Source of the DNA: Candidatus Eiseniibacteriota bacterium
GTDB taxonomy: Bacteria > Joyebacterota > Joyebacteria > Joyebacterales > Joyebacteraceae
Direction of reading: 5' to 3'
Length of the DNA stretch: 52,349 nucleotides
Assembly: GCA_030613615.1 (NCBI GenBank)
Contig: JAUWLR010000003.1
Location: forward strand, 1 to 52,349
Shown here: positions 37,300-47,027 of the stretch, piece after piece
Position numbering within the stretch: the stretch's first letter is position 1
Layout of the letters: each line of letters begins with the position of its first letter
Translations under genes and position numbers: made by a program
Notes under the pieces: generated by a model
The model's database searches: none
The model's input: only the letters and a program-made list of their open reading frames with translations
What the model was told of the DNA's origin: nothing

Positions 37300-38301
37300 C
37301 TAGGCGCTCTTCTTGACCTCCGGTATCTTCTCCCCCTCGCGCGGCTCTCTCAACACCTTCCTGAAATCCACCCACGCGGGCCGGGCCTCGAAGCCGAGCT
37401 GCAGGTTGAGGCCGAACATCGGGTTGTTCTCCTCGTTGTCGGTCTCGATTATCGTCGCGCCGTAGTCGCGCGCGAATCTGACGCCGCTGACCTTGAGCGC
37501 GGTGGCGATGCCCTTCCGCCTGTGACTTCTGACAACACCGGTAAGACCCGTGTGGAGCTTGTGTTTCTCCACCTGCGACGTCCAGAACCCGGTCAGCCCT
37601 ACGTACCTCCTTTCGTCGATGGCGACGAAGTGCGCGCTGGCGTCGTAGTTGGGTGAATCGAATCGCGACGCGAACTGCTCGAAGCTCACCCTGGTCGGCG
37701 GCTCCGGCAGCGGCACGTCCATCCAGCACTCGTTCTCGAGTTCGTACCAGCTCCGCTTCCAGTCCGGGTCGCGTGCGGGAAGGTCCGGGACGTTGACTAT
37801 CTCGATACCTTGCTCCCTCACGTGCTCTTCGACACCCTCGAACTTCGCGAAGTCGAACGTCTGTGGATTCAGGTGTGAGACGGGGTAGCGCATGGTCCGT
37901 ACGAACCCGCGCTTCGTGAGGAAGCGAATGAAATCCGGTTTGTCCTCGCGAGTGTCCGCCGTGAAGAAGAGCGGGTCGAGCGCGGCGAGGCCGGCGACCA
38001 CGTGGTCGTACATCGCCGTGCCGTAACCCATGCGCGTGTAATCCGGATGCACATCGACACCGACGAAGTACTTGCCAGGGACGTGCGTCCACTCGCTTTC
38101 GCCGCAGCTCGAGAACGCCACGATCTCCCCATCGATCTCCCCTACCACACGCCTGAACAGGTACTTCGGGTTCCGGTGCTTGTCGCGGTGCTGCCAGCTT
38201 TCCGGTGAGGAGAGCTCCTCCGGCCAAATGGCGTTCGCTATGTCGACGCAGGCTCGGTACTCCTCGTCGGTACCAGCGAACGGTCGTATCTTGATTGTCA
38301 T
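37300..38301 (-). CDS. Two-domain GNAT N-acetyltransferase (array member 8)
   Basis: VHPDYTRMGYGTAM; TGVVRSHRRKGIATALK; TDNEENNPMFGLNLQLGF. Confidence 0.92.
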   Translation of the reverse strand: MTIKIRPFAGTDEEYRACVDIANAIWPEELSSPESWQHRDKHRNPKYLFRRVVGEIDGEIVAFSSCGESEWTHVPGKYFVGVDVHPDYTRMGYGTAMYDHVVAGLAALDPLFFTADTREDKPDFIRFLTKRGFVRTMRYPVSHLNPQTFDFAKFEGVEEHVREQGIEIVNVPDLPARDPDWKRSWYELENECWMDVPLPEPPTRVSFEQFASRFDSPNYDASAHFVAIDERRYVGLTGFWTSQVEKHKLHTGLTGVVRSHRRKGIATALKVSGVRFARDYGATIIETDNEENNPMFGLNLQLGFEARPAWVDFRKVLREPREGEKIPEVKKSA

Positions 38302-38373
38302 TGTCAGGTCCTCTTGCGCCACGCTGTAGTTACACGCGGCGAGCCTGTGGTATTCGTCGGTTGCGGAGCCGGG

Positions 38374-39360
38374 CTAGTCCGTGCCGGCGACGGCCTTGTC
38401 AGCCGCACCCAGCTCCTTCCTGAACTGAAGCCAGGCCTTGGTCGGAACGAACCCGAGCCGCATGTTGAGATCGTACATCGGGTTATTCTCCTCGTTGTCT
38501 GTGACGATCACCTTAGCGCCCCGTTCCTTCGCAAACTCGTGGGCGCGCACCTTGAGCGCGGTCGCTATGCCGCGCCTACGGTGGCTCCGCACGACGCCGG
38601 TGAGTCTCGTGTAGAACTCGCCCTTCTTGACGCGCCTGTCCCAGACACTGCTCATTCCGACGTAGCGGCCACCGTCCAGCGCAAGGAAGTAGCCCTCAGG
38701 GATGAAGTCCGGATGTTTGAAGCTCTTCTCGAATTCGGAGAACGGCTCGTTGTGCAGCACATCGTCGTCCGGCACGTCGGGGATGATATCACCGTGCAGC
38801 TCCCACGTCTTCCGCATCCAGTCGGGGTCGCGCTTCGCAATCTCGCTCGCGGCCAGAATCTCGATGCCCGATGCGTGGACGCTCTCCACGACACCCGCGA
38901 ACTTCGCGGGCTCGAATGAAGCGAGGTCGAGTTCCGAGTCCTGCTCCTTCATGGAGATCCGGAATCCCCGCTGCTTGAGGAAGGCGATGCCGGCCTCGTG
39001 GTCCTCGCGCGTGAACGATTGGAGGATCTCGGGCTCATGCACCTCCAGGTGCTCGAGTATGCCGTCGAAGAGCGCCCGACCGACCCCCTGGCCCTGACGG
39101 CCGGGGCGAACCTGCGCGTAGACCAGGAACTTGCCCGTCGCCGCCGAGTCGGCCTCCTCGCGGAAGTAGCCCGTCGCCACGATGTCGCCGTCGTCCTCCG
39201 CGACGAGCCGCCCGAACGGGCTCATGGGGTCACGGCTCTCCGCGTTGTAGCGGTACATCTCGGCGGTCTTCGGGTACTCCGGCCAATTGGCCGTCCAGAT
39301 GGCGGCCGTGGCCTCGTAGTCGGCATCGGACTCGTTCATCGCTCTCACGTGCAGTGTCAA
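38374..39360 (-). CDS. Two-domain GNAT N-acetyltransferase (array member 7)
   Basis: VRPGRQGQGVGRAL; TGVVRSHRRRGIATALK; TDNEENNPMYDLN; probable TTG start at 39360. Confidence 0.9.
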   Translation of the reverse strand: MTLHVRAMNESDADYEATAAIWTANWPEYPKTAEMYRYNAESRDPMSPFGRLVAEDDGDIVATGYFREEADSAATGKFLVYAQVRPGRQGQGVGRALFDGILEHLEVHEPEILQSFTREDHEAGIAFLKQRGFRISMKEQDSELDLASFEPAKFAGVVESVHASGIEILAASEIAKRDPDWMRKTWELHGDIIPDVPDDDVLHNEPFSEFEKSFKHPDFIPEGYFLALDGGRYVGMSSVWDRRVKKGEFYTRLTGVVRSHRRRGIATALKVRAHEFAKERGAKVIVTDNEENNPMYDLNMRLGFVPTKAWLQFRKELGAADKAVAGTD

Positions 39361-39380
39361 CTCCCGTCCTCCGTTGCACC

Positions 39381-40382
39381 TCATTCGGCCGCGTCGCCCT
39401 CACGCCCACCGGCCTCTCCGCCGTCGCCCCCCCGGTGTTTCCGCATGTGCACCCACCCCGGCGTCGGCTTGAACCCCAGTTTGACGTTCAGCGGGTACAT
39501 CGGGTTCTTCTCCTCGTTGTCCGTGTCCACGAACTGCGCCTCGGTCGTCCGCGCCTTCGTGAGCGCGTGGACCTTGAGCGCGGTCGCGATGCCCTTCCGC
39601 CGGTGGCTCCTGATGACGCCGGTCAGGTCGGTCTGGAGCTTCGTGGGTTCGGCCAGGTTCAGCTCGAGCATGCTGACGCCCACGTACTCATCACCATCCA
39701 GCGCCACGAAGAACCCCTCCGGGAAGAATGTAGGCTTGTCGAAGGTCTGCCTGCAGTAGACCTCGAACTCGCGCTTCTTCGGCTCGTCGACCTCGGGCAC
39801 GTCCAGCGAGAGCAGCCAGTCGAGTTCCCAGAGCTTCATCCTCCAGTCGGAATCCTCTTCCTTGAGCTCCGTGAGCGGAACGATGCGGACGCCCGATTCC
39901 CTCACACGCTCGACGACGTCTGCGAACTTCGAGGCATCGAACTCCGCGAGCGTCAGACGCGAGTTCTGCCCACGCATCACCTGCTCGTAGCCTCGCTTCG
40001 TAAGGAAGCTCACCGCGTCGGCCTTGTCCTCACGTGTCCACGAGTCGAAGATGGTCGGTTGTCTCTCTGAGAGCACGCCCACGACGTGGTCGTAGATGGC
40101 CTTCCCGTATCCCCTGCGCTGGTGGTCAGGGTGAACCTGCACGTAGATCCAGAACTTGCCGGGAACCGGCGTCCACGACGACTCGCCGAACGAGCACGAG
40201 CCGACGGGCACACCGTCAACCTCAAGGATGACACGCTCCAGCATGTAGCTCTGGTCCCGTGCGTCGTCCCGGTGCTTGAGAAGCTCCGGGAGCTCCAGTT
40301 CGTCCGGGAAGACCGCGTTGGCGATGTCGATGATGATACCGTAGTCGTCGTCGCTCCAGTTGAACGGTCGTATATCTGCCAT
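39381..40382 (-). CDS. Two-domain GNAT N-acetyltransferase (array member 6)
   Basis: VHPDHQRRGYGKAI; TGVIRSHRRKGIATALK; TDNEEKNPM. Confidence 0.92.
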   Translation of the reverse strand: MADIRPFNWSDDDYGIIIDIANAVFPDELELPELLKHRDDARDQSYMLERVILEVDGVPVGSCSFGESSWTPVPGKFWIYVQVHPDHQRRGYGKAIYDHVVGVLSERQPTIFDSWTREDKADAVSFLTKRGYEQVMRGQNSRLTLAEFDASKFADVVERVRESGVRIVPLTELKEEDSDWRMKLWELDWLLSLDVPEVDEPKKREFEVYCRQTFDKPTFFPEGFFVALDGDEYVGVSMLELNLAEPTKLQTDLTGVIRSHRRKGIATALKVHALTKARTTEAQFVDTDNEEKNPMYPLNVKLGFKPTPGWVHMRKHRGGDGGEAGGREGDAAE

Positions 40383-40412
40383 GGTGTTGTCCCTGTCGGT
40401 CAGTTTCGGATG

Positions 40413-41411
40413 TTACCCTTCGACCCTCTCCCCCAGCTTCTTAATAAAGATGAGCCACGCGGGGACCGGCTTGAACCCCAGCCGGACGTTCAGGTCGTAC
40501 ATCGGGTTGTTTTCCTCGTTGTCTGTCTGTATCACTCTCGTACCGATGTCACGTGCGAACTCTATCGACCGAACCTTGAGCGCCGCTGCGATACCGCGCC
40601 GCCTGTGCGGCCGCGCGACGGCCGTGAGGCCGGTGCCCAGACTGCCCGGGTCGGCGAGCCGCTTCCACAGACTCGTCGCCGCCACGATCTCATCCCCATC
40701 GAACGCGAGCAGTATGGCGCCTGGAAGCCTGTTGGGCGCGTTGAGCTCGCGCTCAAACACGTCGTACGTGAACTCCATTCGGTCCACGAATATCGGCACG
40801 TCCTCGAAGAACTCCACGTACTTCTCGTGGGCCTTCCGCCGCGCGTCCGGGTCCTCCGCTTCGTATTCCTCGAACGTCTTCACCGTGATGTCGGACTCCT
40901 CGAACCGCGCCACGAGGCCCGCGAACGGCGCCGCGTCAAAGGACGCGACGTCCAGACGCGAGACCTGCTGCCTCTGCTTCTGCTCGAAGCCCCGGTCGGT
41001 CAGGAACTTCGTCGCGTGCGGCTGGTCCTCGCGGGAATCAGACACCAGGCTCAAAGGCTTGCGCTCGAGTTCGTTGAGGCGCTCGACGATGTGGTCGTAG
41101 ATCGCCGTGCCGATGCCCCTCCTCTGGTACTCGGGCAGCACTCGGATCTGCACGCCGTACATGCCCGGCTCATTGGCCCACTCGGGCTCGCGGTAGATCG
41201 CGGTCGCGACTATCTTCCCCCCGAGTTCTGCCATGAGCCGCTGGAAGAAGTGCCTCCCGCTGCGAGTCCGGTTCGAGTAACGCATGCCCTCTACCGACGT
41301 AGGCTCGTCCGGCCAGATCGCGTTCAATATGGCGACGGACGCGTCGTAGTCACGGTCGGTGTCGTCGAACGGCCTGATGGTCAGCCCTTCGGGGCTCTTC
41401 ACGTCGCTCAT
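40413..41411 (-). CDS. Two-domain GNAT N-acetyltransferase (array member 5)
   Basis: VLPEYQRRGIGTAI; TAVARPHRRRGIAAALK; TDNEENNPM. Confidence 0.92.
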   Translation of the reverse strand: MSDVKSPEGLTIRPFDDTDRDYDASVAILNAIWPDEPTSVEGMRYSNRTRSGRHFFQRLMAELGGKIVATAIYREPEWANEPGMYGVQIRVLPEYQRRGIGTAIYDHIVERLNELERKPLSLVSDSREDQPHATKFLTDRGFEQKQRQQVSRLDVASFDAAPFAGLVARFEESDITVKTFEEYEAEDPDARRKAHEKYVEFFEDVPIFVDRMEFTYDVFERELNAPNRLPGAILLAFDGDEIVAATSLWKRLADPGSLGTGLTAVARPHRRRGIAAALKVRSIEFARDIGTRVIQTDNEENNPMYDLNVRLGFKPVPAWLIFIKKLGERVEG

Positions 41412-42415
41412 CGATCCTCCTGTGCGGGCTCACCCGCCGGATTGTTCTTCGCAAGCTCGTTCTTGTACGCCAGCCACGACGGGATCGGCTTGAAGCCCAG
41501 GCGGACGTTCAACAGGTACATGGGGTTTCTCTCCTCGTTGTCCGTGCGGATGGATTCGAAGCCCATCTCTTTCGCGCCCATGATCGCGCGGACCTTGAGC
41601 GCGGTCGCGATGCCCCTCCGCCTGTGCGTACGCGCAACGCCGGTGAGCCCTGTCTGAAGGAGCTTCGGGTCCGCGAGATTCCGCCAGAGCTGCGACATGC
41701 CAACGTACCTGCCGGCGTCGACGGCGATGAACCACGACTCCGGCATGCCGTCCGGTCCATCGACTTCCGCCATGTACTGCTCGAACGGCATCTTGGTGAG
41801 CGGGTCCGGGAACGGCACGTCCTGAAGGTACTCCCAGCCGGCCTCGTACGCCTTCCTCAGCGCATCAGAATCCTCGGCCATCAGCTCTCTGAACGAGCGG
41901 ACGTCGACCTCGGAAGCATCGACACGCGTGAGCGTCTCTTCGAAGGGCGCCGAGTCGAACGACCGGACATCGAGCTTCGAGAACTGGTTGCGCTGCGCCA
42001 CGCGGAACCCGCGCTTCTCGGCGAAGCGCATGCTGTCGGGGTCGTCCTCCCGCGCGTACGCCGTCAGGACCGTCGGCTTGGGGTCGCGCCCCGCGAGCAC
42101 GCTCCAGATGTGGTCGTAGACCGCGGTGCCCCACCCGAGCCGCCGGTACTCCGGGATGACCTCGACACCGATCATGTACTTGCCCGGGTAGTGGCTCCAC
42201 TCGGCCTCTCCGTAATAGGCGGCAGCGACGGGCGTGCCGTCCAGCTCTCCGATGAGACGCTGGAACAGATACTGCTTCTGGCGGGTCTCGTCGTAATGCC
42301 GCCTGGTCTCGACGGCGACCGGCTCGTCGGGGAAGGCCGCGTTCCAGACGTCCACAATAGCCTGGTAGTCCTCGTCGGAATCGTCGAACGGCCTGATGGC
42401 GAACCCCTGACGCAT
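41408..42415 (-). CDS. Two-domain GNAT N-acetyltransferase (array member 4)
   Basis: VIPEYRRLGWGTAV; TGVARTHRRRGIATALK; TDNEERNPM. Confidence 0.92.
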   Translation of the reverse strand: MRQGFAIRPFDDSDEDYQAIVDVWNAAFPDEPVAVETRRHYDETRQKQYLFQRLIGELDGTPVAAAYYGEAEWSHYPGKYMIGVEVIPEYRRLGWGTAVYDHIWSVLAGRDPKPTVLTAYAREDDPDSMRFAEKRGFRVAQRNQFSKLDVRSFDSAPFEETLTRVDASEVDVRSFRELMAEDSDALRKAYEAGWEYLQDVPFPDPLTKMPFEQYMAEVDGPDGMPESWFIAVDAGRYVGMSQLWRNLADPKLLQTGLTGVARTHRRRGIATALKVRAIMGAKEMGFESIRTDNEERNPMYLLNVRLGFKPIPSWLAYKNELAKNNPAGEPAQEDR

Positions 42416-42416
42416 C

Positions 42417-43346
42417 TCAGACCTCCTTCAGCCACTGCCGCAAGACCCTGTAGTCGGTGAAGCCCGCTGACGCGTAGCACCTGTGGGCGGCCTCGGACTC
42501 CGAGCCGACGAACCCCATCGTGGCTCCCATCTCCCTGGCTCGCCTGAGTCCCTCATGTATGCACGCCACAGCCAGGCCTTTCCTCTGGTGGGCCGGCGAC
42601 GTCGCGACGGGCTCGCATGCGGCCGTCAGTGTGATGTCATCAAACCAGACGGTCGCGAACGACGCAACCGCCCCATCCGGCGCCACCGCGACGATGTCAA
42701 GATCGCGGCGGTAGAGCGGCGCCTTCTGGATGTTGCGATACCAGGTGACGTCCGCCCTGTTGTCGTGCGCCTGCGCCGGGTCGTCCGGGTGAAACGCCAG
42801 CCCGGACGCGTAGCACCGCTCCAGGAGCTCGGCCCCATCATTCATCGGGCGCACAACGAACCCCGCGGGCACCACCGGCTCGGGAATCTCTCCCTGGAGC
42901 GACATGTGGCGCGCGTGCTCCTCGTACCTGGGTTCGAACCCACGGCGCTCGAGGATTGTCTCTCGCGTCGTGTCGCCCTTCGTGGCCCAGACGGCCACTT
43001 TGTTCTTGCCATCCTTGGCCACGGTCCAGAGCCGCTTCTCCGCCACGGCGATCATCTCGTCCTCAAGTTCCTCGGCTCTGAACCCCGGATGCATCTGGAG
43101 GAAGGCATTGCCCTTGCCCTCGGCGTTGAGCACAGCTACGAGCTTCCCGTCCGACGTCTCCCACAGGAGGACCTTCTCCTCCAGGGGACCCTGGTCGAGG
43201 TTCGCGACGCCGTGCCACACCCAGTACTCGAACCTGTACACCTGCCAGTTGAGCTCCTCGCGGTCGTCCAGGAGGAACGTCTCACGTAAGTAGGCCCGGA
43301 TCTTCCAGAAGTCGGGAGCCTCATATGCCCTCATGGTGAGTTTCAT
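42417..43346 (-). CDS. GNAT N-acetyltransferase of a different subfamily (array member 3)
   Basis: EPVATSPAHQRKGLA...AAHRCYASAGF; lacks the TDNEEN motif. Confidence 0.88.
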   Translation of the reverse strand: MKLTMRAYEAPDFWKIRAYLRETFLLDDREELNWQVYRFEYWVWHGVANLDQGPLEEKVLLWETSDGKLVAVLNAEGKGNAFLQMHPGFRAEELEDEMIAVAEKRLWTVAKDGKNKVAVWATKGDTTRETILERRGFEPRYEEHARHMSLQGEIPEPVVPAGFVVRPMNDGAELLERCYASGLAFHPDDPAQAHDNRADVTWYRNIQKAPLYRRDLDIVAVAPDGAVASFATVWFDDITLTAACEPVATSPAHQRKGLAVACIHEGLRRAREMGATMGFVGSESEAAHRCYASAGFTDYRVLRQWLKEV

Positions 43347-43467
43347 GTATTCCCTGTCCTGTGCTTGTGCCGCGCGTGGCGGCTGGAATCAAACCGGGGC
43401 CGCCGCTCCTTTGCCTCATGGCGCGGGAGCGGCGCCGCCCCGATCGTGATGAATGGTCCTGCCGGCA

Positions 43468-44493
43468 TCAAGCGCCCTCCGACGCGCTGACCACCCGGGC
43501 GGAGCCGTCGGCGTCGACCTTGCCCGCGACCTCAGCCGCTCCGTCGAACGGGCGCCGGTACTCGGTCCACGCGGGAGTGGGCTTGAAGCCCAGCCGCATG
43601 TTGAGCTCGAACATGGGGTTCTTCTCCTCGTTGTCCGTCTCGATGAACTTCGCACCGTGCTCCTTCGCGCGCGAGAACCCGTGCACCTTGAGCGCCGTGG
43701 CGATGCCCTTCCGCCTGTGGCTCCTGACGACGCCCGTGAGTCCGGTATAGATCTTCGCGGGGTCCGCCTCGGACAACCAGAGACCGGTGTAGCCCACGAG
43801 CCGGTCGCCGTCACGAGCGAACCAGTGCATGTTCATCCGGTATCCGGGGCTGTCGAACCGCTTGCACCAGATCTCGAACGTGGGCCGCGTAGGCTCGTCG
43901 ATGAATGGCACATCCTGGAAGAGCTCCCATCCGAGGTCGTACCACGAGCGTTTCCAGTCGGGGTCGATCTCGGCGAGCTCCGTCAGACACTGGATCTCCA
44001 CGCCGAGCTCCTTCATCTTACCCGGCGTCCAGTCGAACTCCGACAGGTCGAGCGCCTCGACGTCGAGCCGCGAGACGGCGTACCGCATCGCGAACTCGTA
44101 CCCGCGCTTTGTGAGGAAGCGGACGTAGTCGGGCTTGTCGTCGCGCGTCCACGTCATGAGCGTGTCGGCGCCGCCCTTCGCGAGTTCGCCCATGAGGAAG
44201 TCGTAGAACTGACCACCGTGGCCGTGGTTCTGGTGGTCGGGATGGACCTCGACGAACACGAGGTACTTGCCCGGCACGTGGCTCCAGGTGCAGTGCCCGT
44301 AGACGCCGGACGCCACTATCTTCCCGTCCACCTCTCCCACGAACCGCGCGTGCGTGTACTTCGGGTCGCGGCTCGCGTCCTCATACTTGAACTCTGCCAG
44401 ACCCTGTTTCTCGTCGGGCCACAGCGTGTTGGATATGTCGAGCACCGCACGGTACTCGTCGTCGGTCTTCTTGAACCTGCGTATCGTCATCAT
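43468..44493 (-). CDS. Two-domain GNAT N-acetyltransferase (array member 2)
   Basis: VHPDHQNHGHGGQF; TGVVRSHRRKGIATALK; TDNEEKNPM; ATGA overlap with the upstream gene. Confidence 0.92.
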   Translation of the reverse strand: MMTIRRFKKTDDEYRAVLDISNTLWPDEKQGLAEFKYEDASRDPKYTHARFVGEVDGKIVASGVYGHCTWSHVPGKYLVFVEVHPDHQNHGHGGQFYDFLMGELAKGGADTLMTWTRDDKPDYVRFLTKRGYEFAMRYAVSRLDVEALDLSEFDWTPGKMKELGVEIQCLTELAEIDPDWKRSWYDLGWELFQDVPFIDEPTRPTFEIWCKRFDSPGYRMNMHWFARDGDRLVGYTGLWLSEADPAKIYTGLTGVVRSHRRKGIATALKVHGFSRAKEHGAKFIETDNEEKNPMFELNMRLGFKPTPAWTEYRRPFDGAAEVAGKVDADGSARVVSASEGA

Positions 44494-45464
44494 GTTGGTT
44501 TGTCTCCATTCGTGCTCTTGAGTTCTTTCCTGTAGGTCCACCAAGCCGGCACCGGCTTGAAGCCGAGACGGACATTGAGGTCGTACATCGGGTTGTTCTC
44601 CTCGTTCTCCGTTCTGATGATCCGGGCTCCACGGTCGCGCGCGAACTCGATCGATCGCGCTTTGAGCGCGGTCGCTATGCCCTTCCTGCGCTGGCTTCTC
44701 ACGGTACCGGTCAGATTCGTGTGGAGCTTGTCCTTCTCGGCCATGGACTGCCACAGGCTCGTCACGCCTATGAACCTGCCGTCCACGATCGCGACGAAGT
44801 GCGCCTCCGGAATGAAGCCCGGGTGCGTCAGCCACTTCACCCACTGCTCGAAAGGCTGCTTCGTCACCGGATCGTCGGTCGGAACATCCTGCATCAGCTC
44901 GTGCTCGAGCTCCCACATCTCTGGCTTCCAGTCGATTCCGTCGGCCTCGAGTTCCGGCACGGTTCGTATCTCGACCCCGATCTCGGCCATGCGTTCGCCC
45001 GTCCAGGCGAACGGCTCAGGATCGAAGTCGGCGACAACGAGCTCGGACATCTGGTCGCGCAAGGTCTTCTTGTACCCACGCTTCTCCAGGAAACTCATCC
45101 CCTCCTGCTTGTCCTCCCGGGCATGAGACTCGAAGATCGTGGGACCGCGCTCCGCCAGATCACCCATGATGTGGTCGTAGAGCGCCGTCCCGATCCCGGT
45201 CCTCTGGTGATCCGGGTGAACCTGCACGCTGATGAAGAACTTCCCGGGCACGTGAGTCCACTCGGACTCGCCGTAGAGGGCGCTGGCGACTATGCCACCG
45301 TCAATCTCCACGACCAGGCGCTGAAGGTAGTACCTCGGGTCGCGCCTCTTGTCGTTCTCCTTCGTGCCCTCCGGCACGCTCGGCCTGTCAGGCCAGACGG
45401 CGTTAGAGATGTCCGCGAGTGCCTGGTAGTCGTCGTCGCTGTAGTTGAACGGTCGTATCATCAT
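44490..45464 (-). CDS. Two-domain GNAT N-acetyltransferase (array member 1)
   Basis: VHPDHQRTGIGTAL; TGTVRSQRRKGIATALK; TENEENNPM; ATG 45464 after GGGAG. Confidence 0.92.
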   Translation of the reverse strand: MMIRPFNYSDDDYQALADISNAVWPDRPSVPEGTKENDKRRDPRYYLQRLVVEIDGGIVASALYGESEWTHVPGKFFISVQVHPDHQRTGIGTALYDHIMGDLAERGPTIFESHAREDKQEGMSFLEKRGYKKTLRDQMSELVVADFDPEPFAWTGERMAEIGVEIRTVPELEADGIDWKPEMWELEHELMQDVPTDDPVTKQPFEQWVKWLTHPGFIPEAHFVAIVDGRFIGVTSLWQSMAEKDKLHTNLTGTVRSQRRKGIATALKARSIEFARDRGARIIRTENEENNPMYDLNVRLGFKPVPAWWTYRKELKSTNGDKPT

Positions 45465-45503
45465 CGTTAGCAACTCCCAAGTTGTCGGTTCCTTTCGGTT
45501 GAC

Positions 45504-45689
45504 CTAGCGGGCAGGCTTGGTCTCGAGCTTGATCTTGATATTGAGAACGCGTATCACGTTCATGCTTTTGCTTCTTCCTCTGACGGCCAGGACCGCCCTG
45601 TCGGGGTCCGGCCACGCTGCGTTCGAGACGTCGAGCAGGTTTTGATACCGCCTGTCGCTCTCGTCCTGTGCGCTGATCAGATACTCCAT
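45504..45689 (-). pseudogene. 61-aa GNAT remnant or mini-protein (GNAT N-terminus fused to C-terminus)
   Basis: DESDRRYQNLLDVSNAAWPD resembles NYSDDDYQALADISNAVWPD; LNIKIKLETKPAR resembles LNLQLGFEARPAW; has its own RBS AAAGGA. Confidence 0.65.
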
Positions 45690-46045
45690 GTTCTGTTCTT
45701 CCTTTCGCGTGGACGCGGCGCGCCCACATCGCTCATGAGTTCAAGTGTCGTGTCGGCCAGCTTCGCCTCGCGCCAATCCACCTTCAGCGTCCGGACGGTC
45801 AGCTCGGCCGTCTGCTTGTCGCGGGAGCGGCTCGCGCGCGTCTGGCGCGGCTCCTCCCCGACGGCTCCCTTGGGGGGACGTAGGCTCATCAACAACATGC
45901 TCGCTGCCAGGTTCATCATCCCGATAACAAGCAGCCTCATCGTGTGATGGCCGAACATCGCCCCCAGGCAACACGCCCCTCCGGCTGCGGCGAATGCCAC
46001 CGCGGCGAGACGGTACCTCGCATGTGCTGTGATGTTCTTAGCCAT
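45677..46045 (-). CDS. Hypothetical small membrane protein, first full gene of the GNAT operon
   Basis: RBS GAGGAG plus ATG 46045; two hydrophobic segments followed by a charged tail. Confidence 0.6.
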   Translation of the reverse strand: MAKNITAHARYRLAAVAFAAAGGACCLGAMFGHHTMRLLVIGMMNLAASMLLMSLRPPKGAVGEEPRQTRASRSRDKQTAELTVRTLKVDWREAKLADTTLELMSDVGAPRPRERKNRTWSI

Positions 46046-46230
46046 AGTGTGCTCCTCGTTAGCGCTCGCTAGATCCGGCCTGCCCGCCGTCCTGCCTGCC
46101 CGAGTGTCGGACAAACAGAATGCTCCGTCACCCGATACACTCTGTTCGAGATCGGCAGCAACGAGTTGCAGGCCCCGCACTATCTCTGAGGGGCCGCTAT
46201 GCTTACACCTTGGCTAAACAGAAGAGCTAG

Positions 46231-46290
46231 CTACGAAGGTGGGCCCTCGAGGTGCGATCTCGAGCGTATCGGTCGTTCGATGTTAATCAC
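46231..46290 (-). CDS. Putative leader (attenuator/arrest) peptide MINIERPIRSRSHLEGPPS
   Basis: AGGAG-N7-GTG, 19 codons including CGA/ATA/AGA, ending GPP-S-stop; coding region complementary to the downstream UTR. Confidence 0.6.
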   Translation of the reverse strand: MINIERPIRSRSHLEGPPS

Positions 46291-46345
46291 CCGGCATCTC
46301 CTCTCGAAGGTTCATGGGTTGTACGACACGAACGGTGTGATTGGT

Positions 46346-46375
46346 ATGCTACTGGCCTGCGCCTCGCCCCGTCAA
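46346..46375 (-). promoter_or_regulatory. Sigma70-like promoter of the leader/GNAT operon
   Basis: TTGACG-N18-TAGCAT on the minus strand. Confidence 0.62.
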
Positions 46376-46560
46376 GCACTTTTTGTGCCGACACGACTAT
46401 CGGCGCATCATAGACTCTGACTGATGACGCGTCCGCCGGGTTGAACCGCGTGTCGAGTTCTTTCTTCCGACCCGTCGACCGCCGACATGCGGTGTCGCTC
46501 CTGCCTCGCGACCACTGGTTGTCTCACCTCACGACCACTGGGCGTCGTCCCCGAAATGAA

Positions 46561-46824
46561 TCATGACTCATCCACCTCGACGATCTTCTCGACGACGATC
46601 GAACACTTGGTGACGAGGGCCGCGATGGCGCCGACCGCCGCGAGCTGTGGCAGTATCAGTGCGCCGGCAACGCCCAGCGTAAGGGGGAATTCTATGAGGC
46701 TCTCCCCCTTTTCACTCTTGATGGTCACGCGCCTGATGTTCCCCCCGCGGACGATCTGCTTGACGGTCTCGATGAGCTTCTCGCCTGTGACCTCGAATTC
46801 CTCAATGCGTGTCTTCTCGGACAT
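46561..46824 (-). CDS. DUF4342 domain protein
   Basis: EEFEVTGEKLIETVKQIVRGGNIRRVTIK...EFPLTLG...LAAVGAIAALVTKCSIVVEK. Confidence 0.9.
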   Translation of the reverse strand: MSEKTRIEEFEVTGEKLIETVKQIVRGGNIRRVTIKSEKGESLIEFPLTLGVAGALILPQLAAVGAIAALVTKCSIVVEKIVEVDES

Positions 46825-47027
46825 GTGAGCCTCCATTCAGCTGGGAAACGGGCTGCCCCGGCCGGCGTAGTGCGACTCTCGAGGCCAAGGCTGCGCCCGG
46901 ACTGCCGCAAGTTCCGTGTGTGCGCCCGCTCTTCGTCGCCTCATCAGACACTACGCATGAGCCGGAGGTTTCATTCGGTGTGCAGGCAGCTGGCTCGCTG
47001 GGCAACGCGTCAAGTAGGCAGCCCCGC

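Follow-up and report, generated by a model that had tools for sequence, protein, structure and literature searches.

A conserved, very probably translated 19-codon leader ORF as a candidate translation-sensing switch upstream of tandem GNAT genes in Candidatus Eisenbacteria

What is a short open reading frame of 19 codons for, when it stands in front of an array of acetyltransferase genes? The question is raised by a locus on the minus strand of the window, by which we mean the whole stretch of 52,349 nucleotides that was analysed. An earlier note on this DNA had described here a leader peptide ending in EGPP, and a set of mutually exclusive RNA pairings, and had proposed a ribosome-stalling switch for a downstream GNAT operon. 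All the features it named were located on the minus strand where it had placed them (Table 1). The strong ribosome-binding site, AGGAG followed by 7 nt and a GTG, is read directly from the sequence. The codons singled out as unusual (CGA, ATA and AGA) are indeed rare: with 1403 long ORFs of the genome as the codon-usage reference, ATT, CGA, ATA, AGA, CCA and CCT each account for 7-14% of the codons in the synonymous family concerned. Three leader motifs searched in the genome gave single exact copies only and no extra copies of the leader. Our reading, which we hold to be probable rather than firm, is that a lineage-specific 5' leader of about 295 nt with a translated 19-codon ORF (the uORF) would act as a switch that senses translation and controls the tandem GNAT operon.

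Table 1. Positions of the leader elements and of the downstream genes in the window.
Feature	Position	Strand	Remark
Sigma-70-like promoter match TTGACG-18-TAGCAT	46346..46375	-	sole match on the strand in the scan
5' hairpin GUUCGUG...CAUGAAC, loop variable	46309..46332	-	stem kept in 10/11, lost in L036
Hairpin of the pre-SD stretch CCUUCGAG (46310-46303) with uORF codons 14-16, CUCGAGGG (46251-46244)	46244..46310	-	RNAalifold
uORF Shine-Dalgarno (SD) AGGAG	46298..46302	-	identical in 11/11 g1 sequences; 7 nt before the GTG at 46290
uORF, 19 codons GTG...TAG, MINIERPIRSRSHLEGPPS*	46231..46290	-	indels or stops in 0/11 g1 copies; TAG at 46233-46231
Long-range pairing, 5' strand (uORF codons 7-12)	46255..46272	-	
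Stop-codon hairpin CACCUU...AAGGUG with inner stem	46206..46241	-	one covarying pair in 5/11; CACCTT 46241-46236 and AAGGTG 46211-46206 flank the uORF stop
GGCCCC...GGGGCC hairpin, loop variable in length, no U tract after it	46171..46195	-	98.5% paired
CUCGUU, part of an invariant linker; can pair with AACGAG at the downstream SD	46160..46165	-	95-98% paired, one-sided changes only
Long-range pairing, 3' strand (CGAUCUCGA..GUGUAUCGG); alternative local hairpin	46132..46154	-	
Long variable hairpin (UUCUGUUUGUCCGA/UCGGGCAGGCAGGA)	46090..46120	-	5/14 pairs changed on both sides
SD GAGGAG (46057-46052) and ATG (46045-46043) of the first downstream ORF	46043..46057	-	
122-aa ORF, hydrophobic N-terminal half, genus-specific, no known family	45677..46045	-	
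Eight tandem paralogous two-domain GNAT genes, presumed regulated operon	37300..45473	-	

Is the uORF conserved in relatives? The comparison covered 11+5+4 related sequences of one family, namely 11 leader sequences from the genus-level group of the window (g1) and 5 and 4 sequences from the sister genera g3 and g5. By BLAST the leader is present in 6 of 7 other genomes of the same genus, and a covariance model recovers the same six; outside the genus BLAST gave no matches, either in 17 genomes from the rest of the family or in 16 from other families. The leader core is near-invariant in nucleotides within g1, where the neighbouring GNAT1 protein is 79-86% identical. The 5 g3 and 4 g5 genomes have a 19-codon counterpart (MSDISKAGRVISRLERPVL, MSDITQPVCVRTHLERPTT) with its own SD, GGAGG replacing AGGAG at the same position, and a TAG stop; the same array of tandem two-domain GNAT genes follows, its first gene 276-376 nt downstream. 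When 185,579 species genomes were scanned with a degenerate pattern, 18 matches came up: 12 have the uORF, all of them followed by a GNAT1 relative, and the remaining 6 have no such relative behind them; among 30 metagenome stretches found by a pattern scan, 5 are genuine relatives. Across genera the SD, the start, the 19 codons and the TAG are kept, while most of the uORF sequence and the rest of the leader diverge. TAG is found in 15 of 16 uORFs and is followed by C in 13 of 16. Two of the 16 are exceptions: in G042 the stop is lost (25 codons), and G024 has Arg for Pro17. The leader ORF is thus conserved in all three genera.

Is it also translated? Within g3 and g5, the variants of codons 2-5 are solely third-position synonymous ones (Ser TCT/TCG/TCC, Asp GAC/GAT, Ser AGC/AGT, Thr ACC/ACT), which argues that the uORF is translated. 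Other synonymous variants are seen between genera (Ile4 ATT/ATC, Pro17 CCA/CCG) and within them (Arg9 CGC/CGT in g3, Arg6 CGA/AGA in g1). The uORF is free of indels in 15 of the 16 tabulated sequences, and there are many indels in the flanking loops. By this signature of synonymous variation the short ORF is very probably translated as a conserved leader ORF, and the earlier proposal of a leader peptide gains accordingly. As to its transcription, the promoter match in Table 1 predicts a transcript start near 46339, about 49 nt upstream of the uORF. TTGACG-18-TATGAT or TACGAT stands at the same distance in g3 and g5, 56-61 nt before the uORF; within g1 the -35 element is deleted in 4 of 11 sequences (G004, G005, G001 and L041) and unrecognisable in L036. 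Contigs from 4 RNA-library runs (3 studies), with 88-99% likeness, cover the leader and both flanks alike; because neither starts and ends nor strand and level can be read from contigs, and DNA may be among them, they give no information on transcription boundaries.

Can the leader RNA form alternative structures that a ribosome on the uORF could control? The earlier note had paired a coding segment of the uORF with a segment behind its stop, and this complementarity is borne out: CCGATACGCTCGAGATCG (46272-46255) matches CGATCTCGA (46154-46146) and GTGTATCGG (46140-46132) with 9+9 pairs, including one G-U. The stretch from codon 7 to codon 16 of the uORF has two kinds of complement in each of the three genera: the SD region of the uORF itself, and two nested segments that lie 50-125 nt downstream. 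The best nested complementarity was compared with 300 dinucleotide shuffles per sequence, giving p<=0.037 (G000) and p<=0.023 (L036) in g1 and p of 0.010 and 0.086 in g5; the g3 sequences are not significant (p 0.14-0.86). All cells of the pairing are paired in g5 (100%), and in g3 one pair steps C-G, U-G, U-A. Within g1, 15 of 18 pairs never vary and are therefore uninformative on pairing; three substitutions give A-C or C-A mismatches with no compensation. G006 and G001 have a deletion of 3-4 nt that does not touch either pairing strand but reduces the loop on the inner stem of the local hairpin to 2 nt. The statistical support for the long-range pairing is modest. The alternative partner suggested for the downstream strand, CCGACACTC at 46110-46102, is present, but only 84.7% of cells keep the CCGACACUC pairing, which also extends over the tip of a hairpin with 5 covarying pairs. 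Likewise AGUGU can pair in the window with ACACT (46050-46046), immediately before the ATG at 46045, but this is broken in G001 and L036. The proposed helices overlap by one or two bases. Of the mutually exclusive pairings claimed at first, what stands is that the RNA joins alternative long-range pairings; the uncompensated substitutions of g1 and the shuffles of g3 count against our own reading.

The start region of the uORF takes part in pairing too. The helix of the pre-SD stretch with codons 14-16 (Table 1) is paired in 97.7% of cells in g1, with one-sided changes only, and its counterpart in g3 and g5 joins the SD itself (GAGGUGC/G) to codons 12-14, with 100% of cells paired; the predicted accessibility of the uORF SD differed among sequences. 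Ser, Thr or Pro stands at codon 12 (NCG), His, Arg or Cys at codon 13 (YRC), and Glu or Gly at codon 15 (GAG or GGG), and the predicted pairs are always kept. Since at these codons the residue changes and the pairing stays, the shared "HLE" looks like an RNA constraint, imposed by pairing with the uORF's own SD region, and not like a peptide motif. This bears on whether the 19-residue peptide could itself be the product, as a small protein or as a precursor or substrate of the neighbouring acetyltransferases. Its coding sequence has a strong SD and stands directly before the eight GNAT genes, and in g3 and g5 the N-terminal codons change only synonymously, so that MSDI(S/T) is preserved. However, codons 2-5 vary freely in g1; the changes toward the C-terminus, those just given and Pro/Arg/Tyr, are non-conservative with the pairs kept; a structured spacer of 185-320 nt precedes the next gene; and no similar uORF lies upstream of the related GNAT genes in two other genera (g4 and g7) or at 16 loci from other phyla. 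We regard a peptide product as highly improbable.

Does the ribosome stall at the end of the uORF, as first proposed? On that proposal EGPP(S) would work as a programmed arrest motif like RAPP/RGPP/XPP, perhaps one sensitive to EF-P, and the stalled ribosome would open the stop hairpin and switch the downstream fold. The hairpin itself was located around the stop, with one inner pair changing from C-G to U-A in 5 of 11 sequences. The stall site would lie on its 5' arm, and its 3' arm UUAGCCAAGGUGU can also base-pair around the start of the next gene (85% paired, with one compensatory change from U-A to A-U in L036). PP-S-stop is identical in 11/11 g1 sequences, its two Pro codons are the least used ones for that amino acid, and codon 17 is Pro in 14 of 16 uORFs across genera, with a synonymous CCA/CCG change. 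But consecutive prolines are limited to g1: PP is found in 0/9 g3 and g5 uORFs, which end in ERPVL, ERPAF, ERRAL, ERPTT or GRPAT or have lost the stop, and the core E-G-P-P of the window uORF is E-R-P-x in the sister genera. The first core position is thus Glu, and RAPP/RGPP arrest needs Arg, AAPP and Arg-mutant variants having lost arrest, according to PMC12992588. The invariance of CCA CCU in g1 is explained equally by pairing with AAGGUG(G), the residue changes at codons 12, 13 and 15 follow base pairing and not peptide chemistry, and the peptide is just 19 residues long with an N-terminal third free to vary in g1. In mgtL/mgtP-like leader ORFs, consecutive or clustered Pro codons are conserved as the sensing element; here Pro17 alone is widely kept. 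EGPP stalling is not supported, and we consider a programmed arrest of this kind unlikely.

If the peptide matters little, could the RNA alone be the functional element? A structured regulatory RNA (a riboswitch-like or protein-binding leader, or a small RNA), with the ORF carried along or incidentally translated, would agree with a g1 core that is near-invariant even at third codon positions and for about 100 nt past the stop, and with several hairpins that have variable loops and covarying stems; the loop of the 5' hairpin, for example, differs in sequence and length among g1. The fold energy has a z-score of -1.79, 4 of 100 shuffles folding as well, and in G006 the leader is retained although the SD and ATG of the next gene are deleted. 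On the other side, Rfam 15 gave no match at gathering score in the whole window, and at E<=10 only two chance-level snoRNA-type matches in 45600-46900, both outside the element. An nhmmer profile of the g1 leader matched only g1 among the collected loci, and so did the covariance model R1 across the phylum (31 genomes). Against the g3, g4, g5 and g7 loci with filters off, this model had best E of 0.23-1.5, mostly misplaced and with no usable match; since it does not find the g3 and g5 leaders above noise, RNA homology beyond the uORF and the two ribosome-binding regions is unsupported. Outside these parts the sequence shows no recognisable conservation across genera, unlike that of ligand-binding aptamers, and what the genera have in common are precisely coding features, namely the SD, the start, the 19 codons, the TAG and the synonymous variation. 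A purely structural RNA is therefore improbable in our view.

How would a translated uORF act on the operon? A ribosome on the uORF would have to melt the helices that the uORF forms, and its presence, speed or pausing would therefore set the downstream fold and, through it, the level of operon expression. Under such a translation-sensing switch, the act of translating the uORF would count for more than the peptide sequence, and EGPP would not be the conserved determinant. The folds with and without the long-range pairing are within 1 kcal/mol: for the window leader, the minimum free energy is -116.4 kcal/mol, compared with -115.5 when the long-range pairing is forced and -116.1 when the start-masking helix is forced. 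This last helix is paired in 85% of cells in g1, and no equivalent was found in g3 or g5. When 16 leaders were folded with a mask for a terminating ribosome, the predicted accessibility of the downstream SD shifted by at least 0.2 in only 2; with the entire uORF masked it went down in 4 and up in 2. Masking thus has no consistent effect on this SD. RNAduplex energies of the downstream ribosome-binding region with the leader are within about 1-2 sd of shuffles. Scans of the leader strand in the window, a second g1 genome, g3 and g5 gave no intrinsic terminator, so the output is probably not of that type; it could be downstream translation initiation, or else Rho-dependent termination or RNA stability. 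Rho-dependent termination or RNA stability fits G006, which keeps the leader after deletion of the adjacent SD and ATG. As for Rho, (C-G)/40 near the uORF stop is 0.33-0.42 in g5, where a C-rich, G-poor tract (19-21 C vs 4-6 G in 40 nt) lies right at the stop; it is 0.15-0.17 in 3 of 5 g3 sequences, the other two peaking elsewhere, and 0.03-0.15 in g1.

What lies downstream of the leader? The first ORF there, of 122 aa, is partly deleted in G006 and G001; it has no Pfam or NCBIfam family, and its nearest Atlas clusters are at 0.87, below lead level. Its GAGGAGCAC context also precedes the first GNAT gene in g3. Seven genes of the array match at E<=1e-20, and the eighth lies at 42417-43346; the arrays of the lineage are unusual and expanding, with three to eight paralogous two-domain genes. 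For the function of these proteins, NCBIfam matches are all far below cut-off, and the best solved relative is 2wpw, a two-domain GNAT of unknown role (E 4e-6). The leader does precede a GNAT operon, as the earlier note had it, but the masked folds lend no consistent support to EGPP as the working part of the leader. A more specific version may be imagined by analogy with ligand-sensing leaders, such as TnaC, inhibited by tryptophan, and SpeFL, inhibited by ornithine. A small molecule related to the GNAT substrate might block RF1-dependent termination at Pro-x-x-UAG-C, or elongation just before it, and the held ribosome might keep the uORF-downstream helices open, with the operon expressed. 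We think this unlikely. If true, it would give an uncultured phylum an inducible nascent-chain switch that senses a ligand and co-evolves with an expanding enzyme family.

Which of the known leaders does this one resemble? In the trpL and hisL attenuators, a translated leader ORF with a regulatory codon run is coupled to mutually exclusive pairings and to a terminator made of a hairpin and a U tract. The leader here is similar in its translated ORF and in having RNA in mutually exclusive pairings, but it has no codon run for a single amino acid (the only consecutive repeats are PP in g1 and TT in g5) and no hairpin with U-tract terminator in the four scans of the leader strand. The label 'attenuator-like' is a fair one, because a conserved and very probably translated ORF, alternative long-range pairings and a position before the GNAT operon come together. 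In the tnaC/speFL type the ribosome stalls at the stop codon or close to it, and termination depends on Rho. Compared with this type (see also PMC8429421), the likeness lies in the conserved stop with Pro three codons before it, the missing intrinsic terminator and the C-rich, G-poor tract at the g5 stop; unlike it, g1 and g3 have only a weak excess of C over G at the stop, and no conserved sensor residues stand out after the RNA constraints are accounted for. As for the RAPP/RGPP/RAGP arrest peptides (ApdA, ApdP, SecM), they share with the uORF a small ORF before regulated genes and, in g1, G-P-P near the C-terminus; unlike them, the uORF has Glu for the essential Arg, no PP in the sister genera, only 19 codons and no signal sequence, and its downstream genes are unrelated to protein localisation.

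The leader peptide of ermC also has 19 codons. In the manner of the erm/cat-type translational attenuation leaders (see also PMC5499644), a short leader ORF with its own SD is here partly complementary to a downstream segment, as seen in silico, and the position of the ribosome could select between alternative folds with no need of a terminator. It differs from them in that 50-125 nt, with two more hairpins, lie between the paired segments, that sequestration of the downstream SD or start, which in that type the stalled ribosome relieves, is predicted inconsistently, that one species keeps the leader without an adjacent ribosome-binding region, that no inducing drug is known, and that the downstream genes are GNAT acetyltransferases. 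A literature search, largely at abstract level, found no paper on this leader or on these GNAT gene arrays. The coupling of translation to RNA folding through a leader ORF is a classical principle of bacterial control, and to our knowledge the examples studied so far are nearly all from a small number of cultured phyla and of gene classes. The present leader adds a clear comparative case from an uncultured lineage, Candidatus Eisenbacteria, in cold-seep and marine-sediment data. It also suggests that conserved-looking peptide motifs such as HLE and EGPP can be by-products of RNA pairing, which calls for caution in motif-based searches for arrest peptides. The signal that is sensed, if found, would hint at the substrate of the GNAT array.

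All features listed in the earlier note are present on the minus strand, inside a gap of 515 nt that separates the DUF4342 gene (46836-46561) from the next ORF, and they are collected in the table together with a promoter-like site. Rare codons account for six of the 19 in the uORF: CGA, ATA and AGA, which had been called unusual, and also ATT, CCA and CCT. Counted over 1403 long ORFs from the genome (64% G+C), each of the six supplies just 7-14% of its synonymous family. The Rfam search proposed as a check gave no match to the leader, which is in no Rfam family, and literature searches found no published account of it.

Signals and pairing segments of the leader
Feature	Position	Strand	Remark
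SD of the uORF, AGGAG	46302-46298	-	7-nt spacer, then GTG at 46290
uORF reading frame MINIERPIRSRSHLEGPPS	GTG 46290; TAG 46233-46231	-	read from sequence
18-nt stretch of the long-range helix	46272-46255	-	complementary to 46154-46146 and 46140-46132; 9 + 9 pairs, one G-U
CACCUU/AAGGUG hairpin around the uORF stop (stop hairpin)	46241-46206	-	
CCGACACUC	46110-46102	-	alternative partner proposed in the earlier note
ACACU	46050-46046	-	directly before ATG at 46045
Sigma-70-like match TTGACG-18-TAGCAT	46375-46346	-	sole promoter-like site on the leader strand (scan)

Is the leader conserved? BLAST found it in six of the seven other genomes of the genus (group g1), in 0 of 17 in the family's other genera and in 0 of 16 in other families; a covariance model of its core recovered the same six of seven and nothing from the phylum's 23 other genomes, the phylum being sampled by 31 species genomes of one family. 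The GNAT array of the seventh genome begins at a contig end, so its missing leader may be an assembly gap. A pattern scan of metagenomes added five relatives among 30 stretches, including a more divergent lineage (loci L036 and L056). Relatives' loci in public records show 81-85% identity in GNAT1, the first two-domain GNAT gene after the leader. From the SD of the uORF to about 46130 the sequence is near-invariant, third codon positions included, among genomes whose GNAT1 proteins are 79-86% identical. Variation falls in hairpin loops, with indels, and in uORF codons 2-5, which change freely with no indel and no stop; the uORF of L036 has one synonymous change, CGA to AGA.

Counterparts exist in two sister genera (g3 and g5), where a gap of ~400 nt separates pyruvate kinase from the first gene of a tandem array of three or four GNAT genes. 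This gap holds a promoter match (TTGACG-18-TATGAT or TACGAT), ~60 nt on a GGAGG, and then a 19-codon ORF ending in TAG, which is MSDISKAGRVISRLERPVL and variants in five g3 genomes and MSDITQPVCVRTHLERPTT and variants in four g5 genomes. The promoter-to-uORF distance there is 56-61 nt and agrees with the site in the window's genome. Conservation of the ORF in relatives is thus borne out by six genomes of the genus and by these counterparts. A degenerate pattern (SD, start, 12 free codons, CTC GAG RGN CCN, two free codons, TAG) was also run against 185,579 species genomes and gave 18 stretches. Twelve have the uORF, all 12 with a GNAT1 relative 220-320 nt downstream of its stop; the other six, from other phyla, are without such a GNAT gene, and in two the frame is interrupted by stops. 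Two further genera (g4, g7) showed no similar uORF, nor did 16 loci from other phyla upstream of related GNAT genes.

What is selected in this short ORF, the frame, the peptide or the RNA? Within g3 and g5, codons 2-5 vary only at synonymous third positions (Ser TCT/TCG/TCC, Asp GAC/GAT, Ser AGC/AGT, Thr ACC/ACT), and further synonymous variants are Ile4 ATT/ATC between genera, Arg9 CGC/CGT and Pro17 CCA/CCG. Of 16 tabulated sequences, 15 retain the start, the SD, the 19-codon length and TAG; the exception (G042) lacks that stop and extends to 25 codons. Together with these kept features, the synonymous variation is, by comparative evidence, the signature of a translated frame, and an element working purely as RNA is improbable. 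The TAG, kept across three genera, is followed by C in 13 of 16 sequences; TAG then C is a weak termination context in E. coli.

At the C-terminal end residues change and base pairs stay. Codons 12 and 13 follow the patterns NCG (Ser, Thr or Pro) and YRC (His, Arg or Cys); codon 15 reads GAG (Glu) except in G022, which has GGG (Gly). Each variant keeps its predicted base pair. This is evidence that the C-terminal peptide sequence would not be what is selected, and it leaves a functional peptide very hard to credit. The shared C(A/G)C CUC GAG finds its complement in the SD region of the uORF itself, pairing in g3 and g5 with GAGGUGC(G) (100% of cells paired), and in g1 with CCUUCGAG just upstream of the SD (97.7%). 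PP occurs in g1 only, the last three residues across the set being PPS, PVL, PAF, RAL, PTT or PAT. Since residue changes keep the pairs and PP is confined to g1, 'HLE' and 'EGPP' would be better explained by RNA constraint than as a peptide motif. The earlier note had taken EGPP for a stalling motif. According to PMC12992588, arrest at RAPP/RGPP depends on Arg, and AAPP and Arg mutants are arrest-defective. The g1 uORF has Glu at that position; EGPP is not supported as an arrest motif, and a switch driven by stalling at it is unlikely. We consider it probable that the leader is a translation-sensing RNA switch for which the act of translating the uORF, not the peptide, matters.

Is such a fold supported? 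In g1, 15 of the 18 pairs of the long-range helix never vary and are therefore uninformative. The substitutions are G/A at codon 9, U/C on the partner strand and, in G001, U-to-C at codon 12; they give G-U and A-U pairs in some cases and A-C or C-A mismatches in others. Two relatives (G006, G001) have lost 3-4 nt, which leaves both strands intact and the inner stem of the competing local hairpin with only a 2-nt loop. The paired segments in g5 are GUCUGUGUG (codons 8-10) with CACACAGAC and UCGAGAGA (codons 14-16) with UCUCUCGA; those in g3 are codons 9-12 with CGAUAU(Y)(R)CG(G), and CGAGAG with CUCUCG, and one g3 pair runs stepwise through C-G, U-G and U-A. The helix is supported because its strands survive the deletion, its architecture recurs with other sequences and a g3 pair changes stepwise. 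A nested two-helix score against dinucleotide shuffles of the uORF segment (g1, p<=0.037, 0.023; g5, 0.010, 0.086; g3, 0.14-0.86, not significant) is suggestive, not conclusive. The complementarity claimed earlier is thus present and recurs, with no compensatory change among the g1 substitutions in this helix. Covariation gives good support to the stop hairpin at its inner stem, where U-A replaces C-G in 5 of 11 sequences, and to a long hairpin at 46120-46090 (5 of 14 pairs changed on both sides). The alternative partner CCGACACUC is paired in 84.7% of cells, but poorly in divergent sequences, and is the tip of the latter hairpin; G001 and L036 disrupt the proposed AGUGU:ACACU pairing. A start-masking helix can also be drawn between UUAGCCAAGGUGU, the 3' arm of the stop hairpin, and the complementary ACACUAUGGCUAA in the start region of the next gene (85% of cells; one compensatory change, L036); neither g3 nor g5 showed a counterpart of this helix.

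Compared with shuffled sequences, the leader's fold is somewhat more stable (z -1.79). Folded freely, 46339-46020 has an MFE of -116.4 kcal/mol, against -115.5 with the long-range helix forced and -116.1 with the start-masking helix forced; with energies so close, very different folds are nearly isoenergetic. This fits the mutually exclusive pairings of the earlier note. Masking of ribosome footprints on the uORF had no consistent effect on the downstream SD: a terminating ribosome lowered its predicted accessibility by at least 0.2 in 2 of 16 leaders, and a mask over the whole uORF lowered it in 4 of 16 and raised it in 2.

At which level would the switch act? Four scans, one of them of the window, predicted no intrinsic terminator on the leader strand. 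In G006 the SD and ATG of the next ORF are lost with leader and uORF intact, which speaks against a mechanism working solely by masking that ORF's ribosome-binding region. Room is left for Rho-dependent termination or RNA stability as the output. At the uORF stop, g5 has a pronounced C-rich, G-poor tract (19-21 C vs 4-6 G per 40 nt), of which g1 and g3 show a weak form. Contigs from the RNA libraries of three studies span the leader together with its flanks; such contigs carry no end information and may derive from DNA.

Control of a GNAT operon, as claimed earlier, stands as regards position: the leader precedes not a single gene but eight tandem paralogous two-domain GNAT genes, 45473 to 37300 on the minus strand. 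Seven match GNAT1 at E<=1e-20 and the eighth (43346-42417) is recognised by Pfam; their ends abut or overlap. The best solved relative is 2wpw ORF14 (E 4e-6), and loci titled Fraserbacteria, Caldilineaceae, Anaerolineae and Ardenticatenaceae have arrays of 2-3 GNAT genes as well. Downstream of the array (36722-30719, minus strand) lie genes for a methyltransferase-domain protein, an S41 peptidase and a 1112-aa tricorn-type protease. Two minus-strand ORFs stand between leader and GNAT1. One, of 122 aa (46045-45677), matched no known family and is confined to the genus; its start is the ATG that in g3 belongs to the first GNAT gene. This ORF is fast-evolving, and deletions have removed part of it in G006 (its SD and start) and G001 (an internal stretch), loci L006 and L007; its N-terminal half is hydrophobic and its RPRERKNRTWSI end conserved. 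The other, of 61 codons (45689-45504, beginning MEYLISAQDESDRRYQNLLDVSNAAWPD), has a product like the first ~35 residues of GNAT proteins and so appears to be what remains of an array member since lost. The end of the 122-aa ORF overlaps its ATG, and it is intact in G006 with 7 of 61 residues changed.

Further observations concern the region upstream. An element at 46404-46358 (minus strand), with invariant GCGCCGAUAGUCGUGUC and GGGGCGAGGCGC around a variable middle with a 9-nt indel, can form a GCGCC/GGCGC hairpin and overlaps the -35 of the promoter-like site; it is a single exact copy in the genome and may serve as an operator or belong to a longer transcript. The promoter itself appears to turn over within the genus: TTGACG-18-TAGCAT is present in the window's genome, G003, G002 and L030, and L028 keeps the -35 only. 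In the rest (among them L004, L005, L007 and L041) the -35 is deleted, and a TTGCGT-18-TAAGGT-like pair, read by eye and below the scan threshold, lies ~60 nt farther upstream (about 46420-46450, minus strand). Just past the DUF4342 stop lie two copies of a direct repeat, CCAGTGGTCG(T/C)GAGG, spaced 8 nt apart (46541-46504, minus strand).

By comparative evidence, then, the leader is a real, lineage-specific element with an apparently translated uORF, and 'attenuator-like' remains apt for it, given the conserved uORF with its translation signature and the alternative pairings. The uORF lacks the defining features of RAPP-like arrest peptides, and the leader those of terminator-type attenuators; by in silico comparison, the closest to it in working are leaders of the erm/cat or tnaC type.
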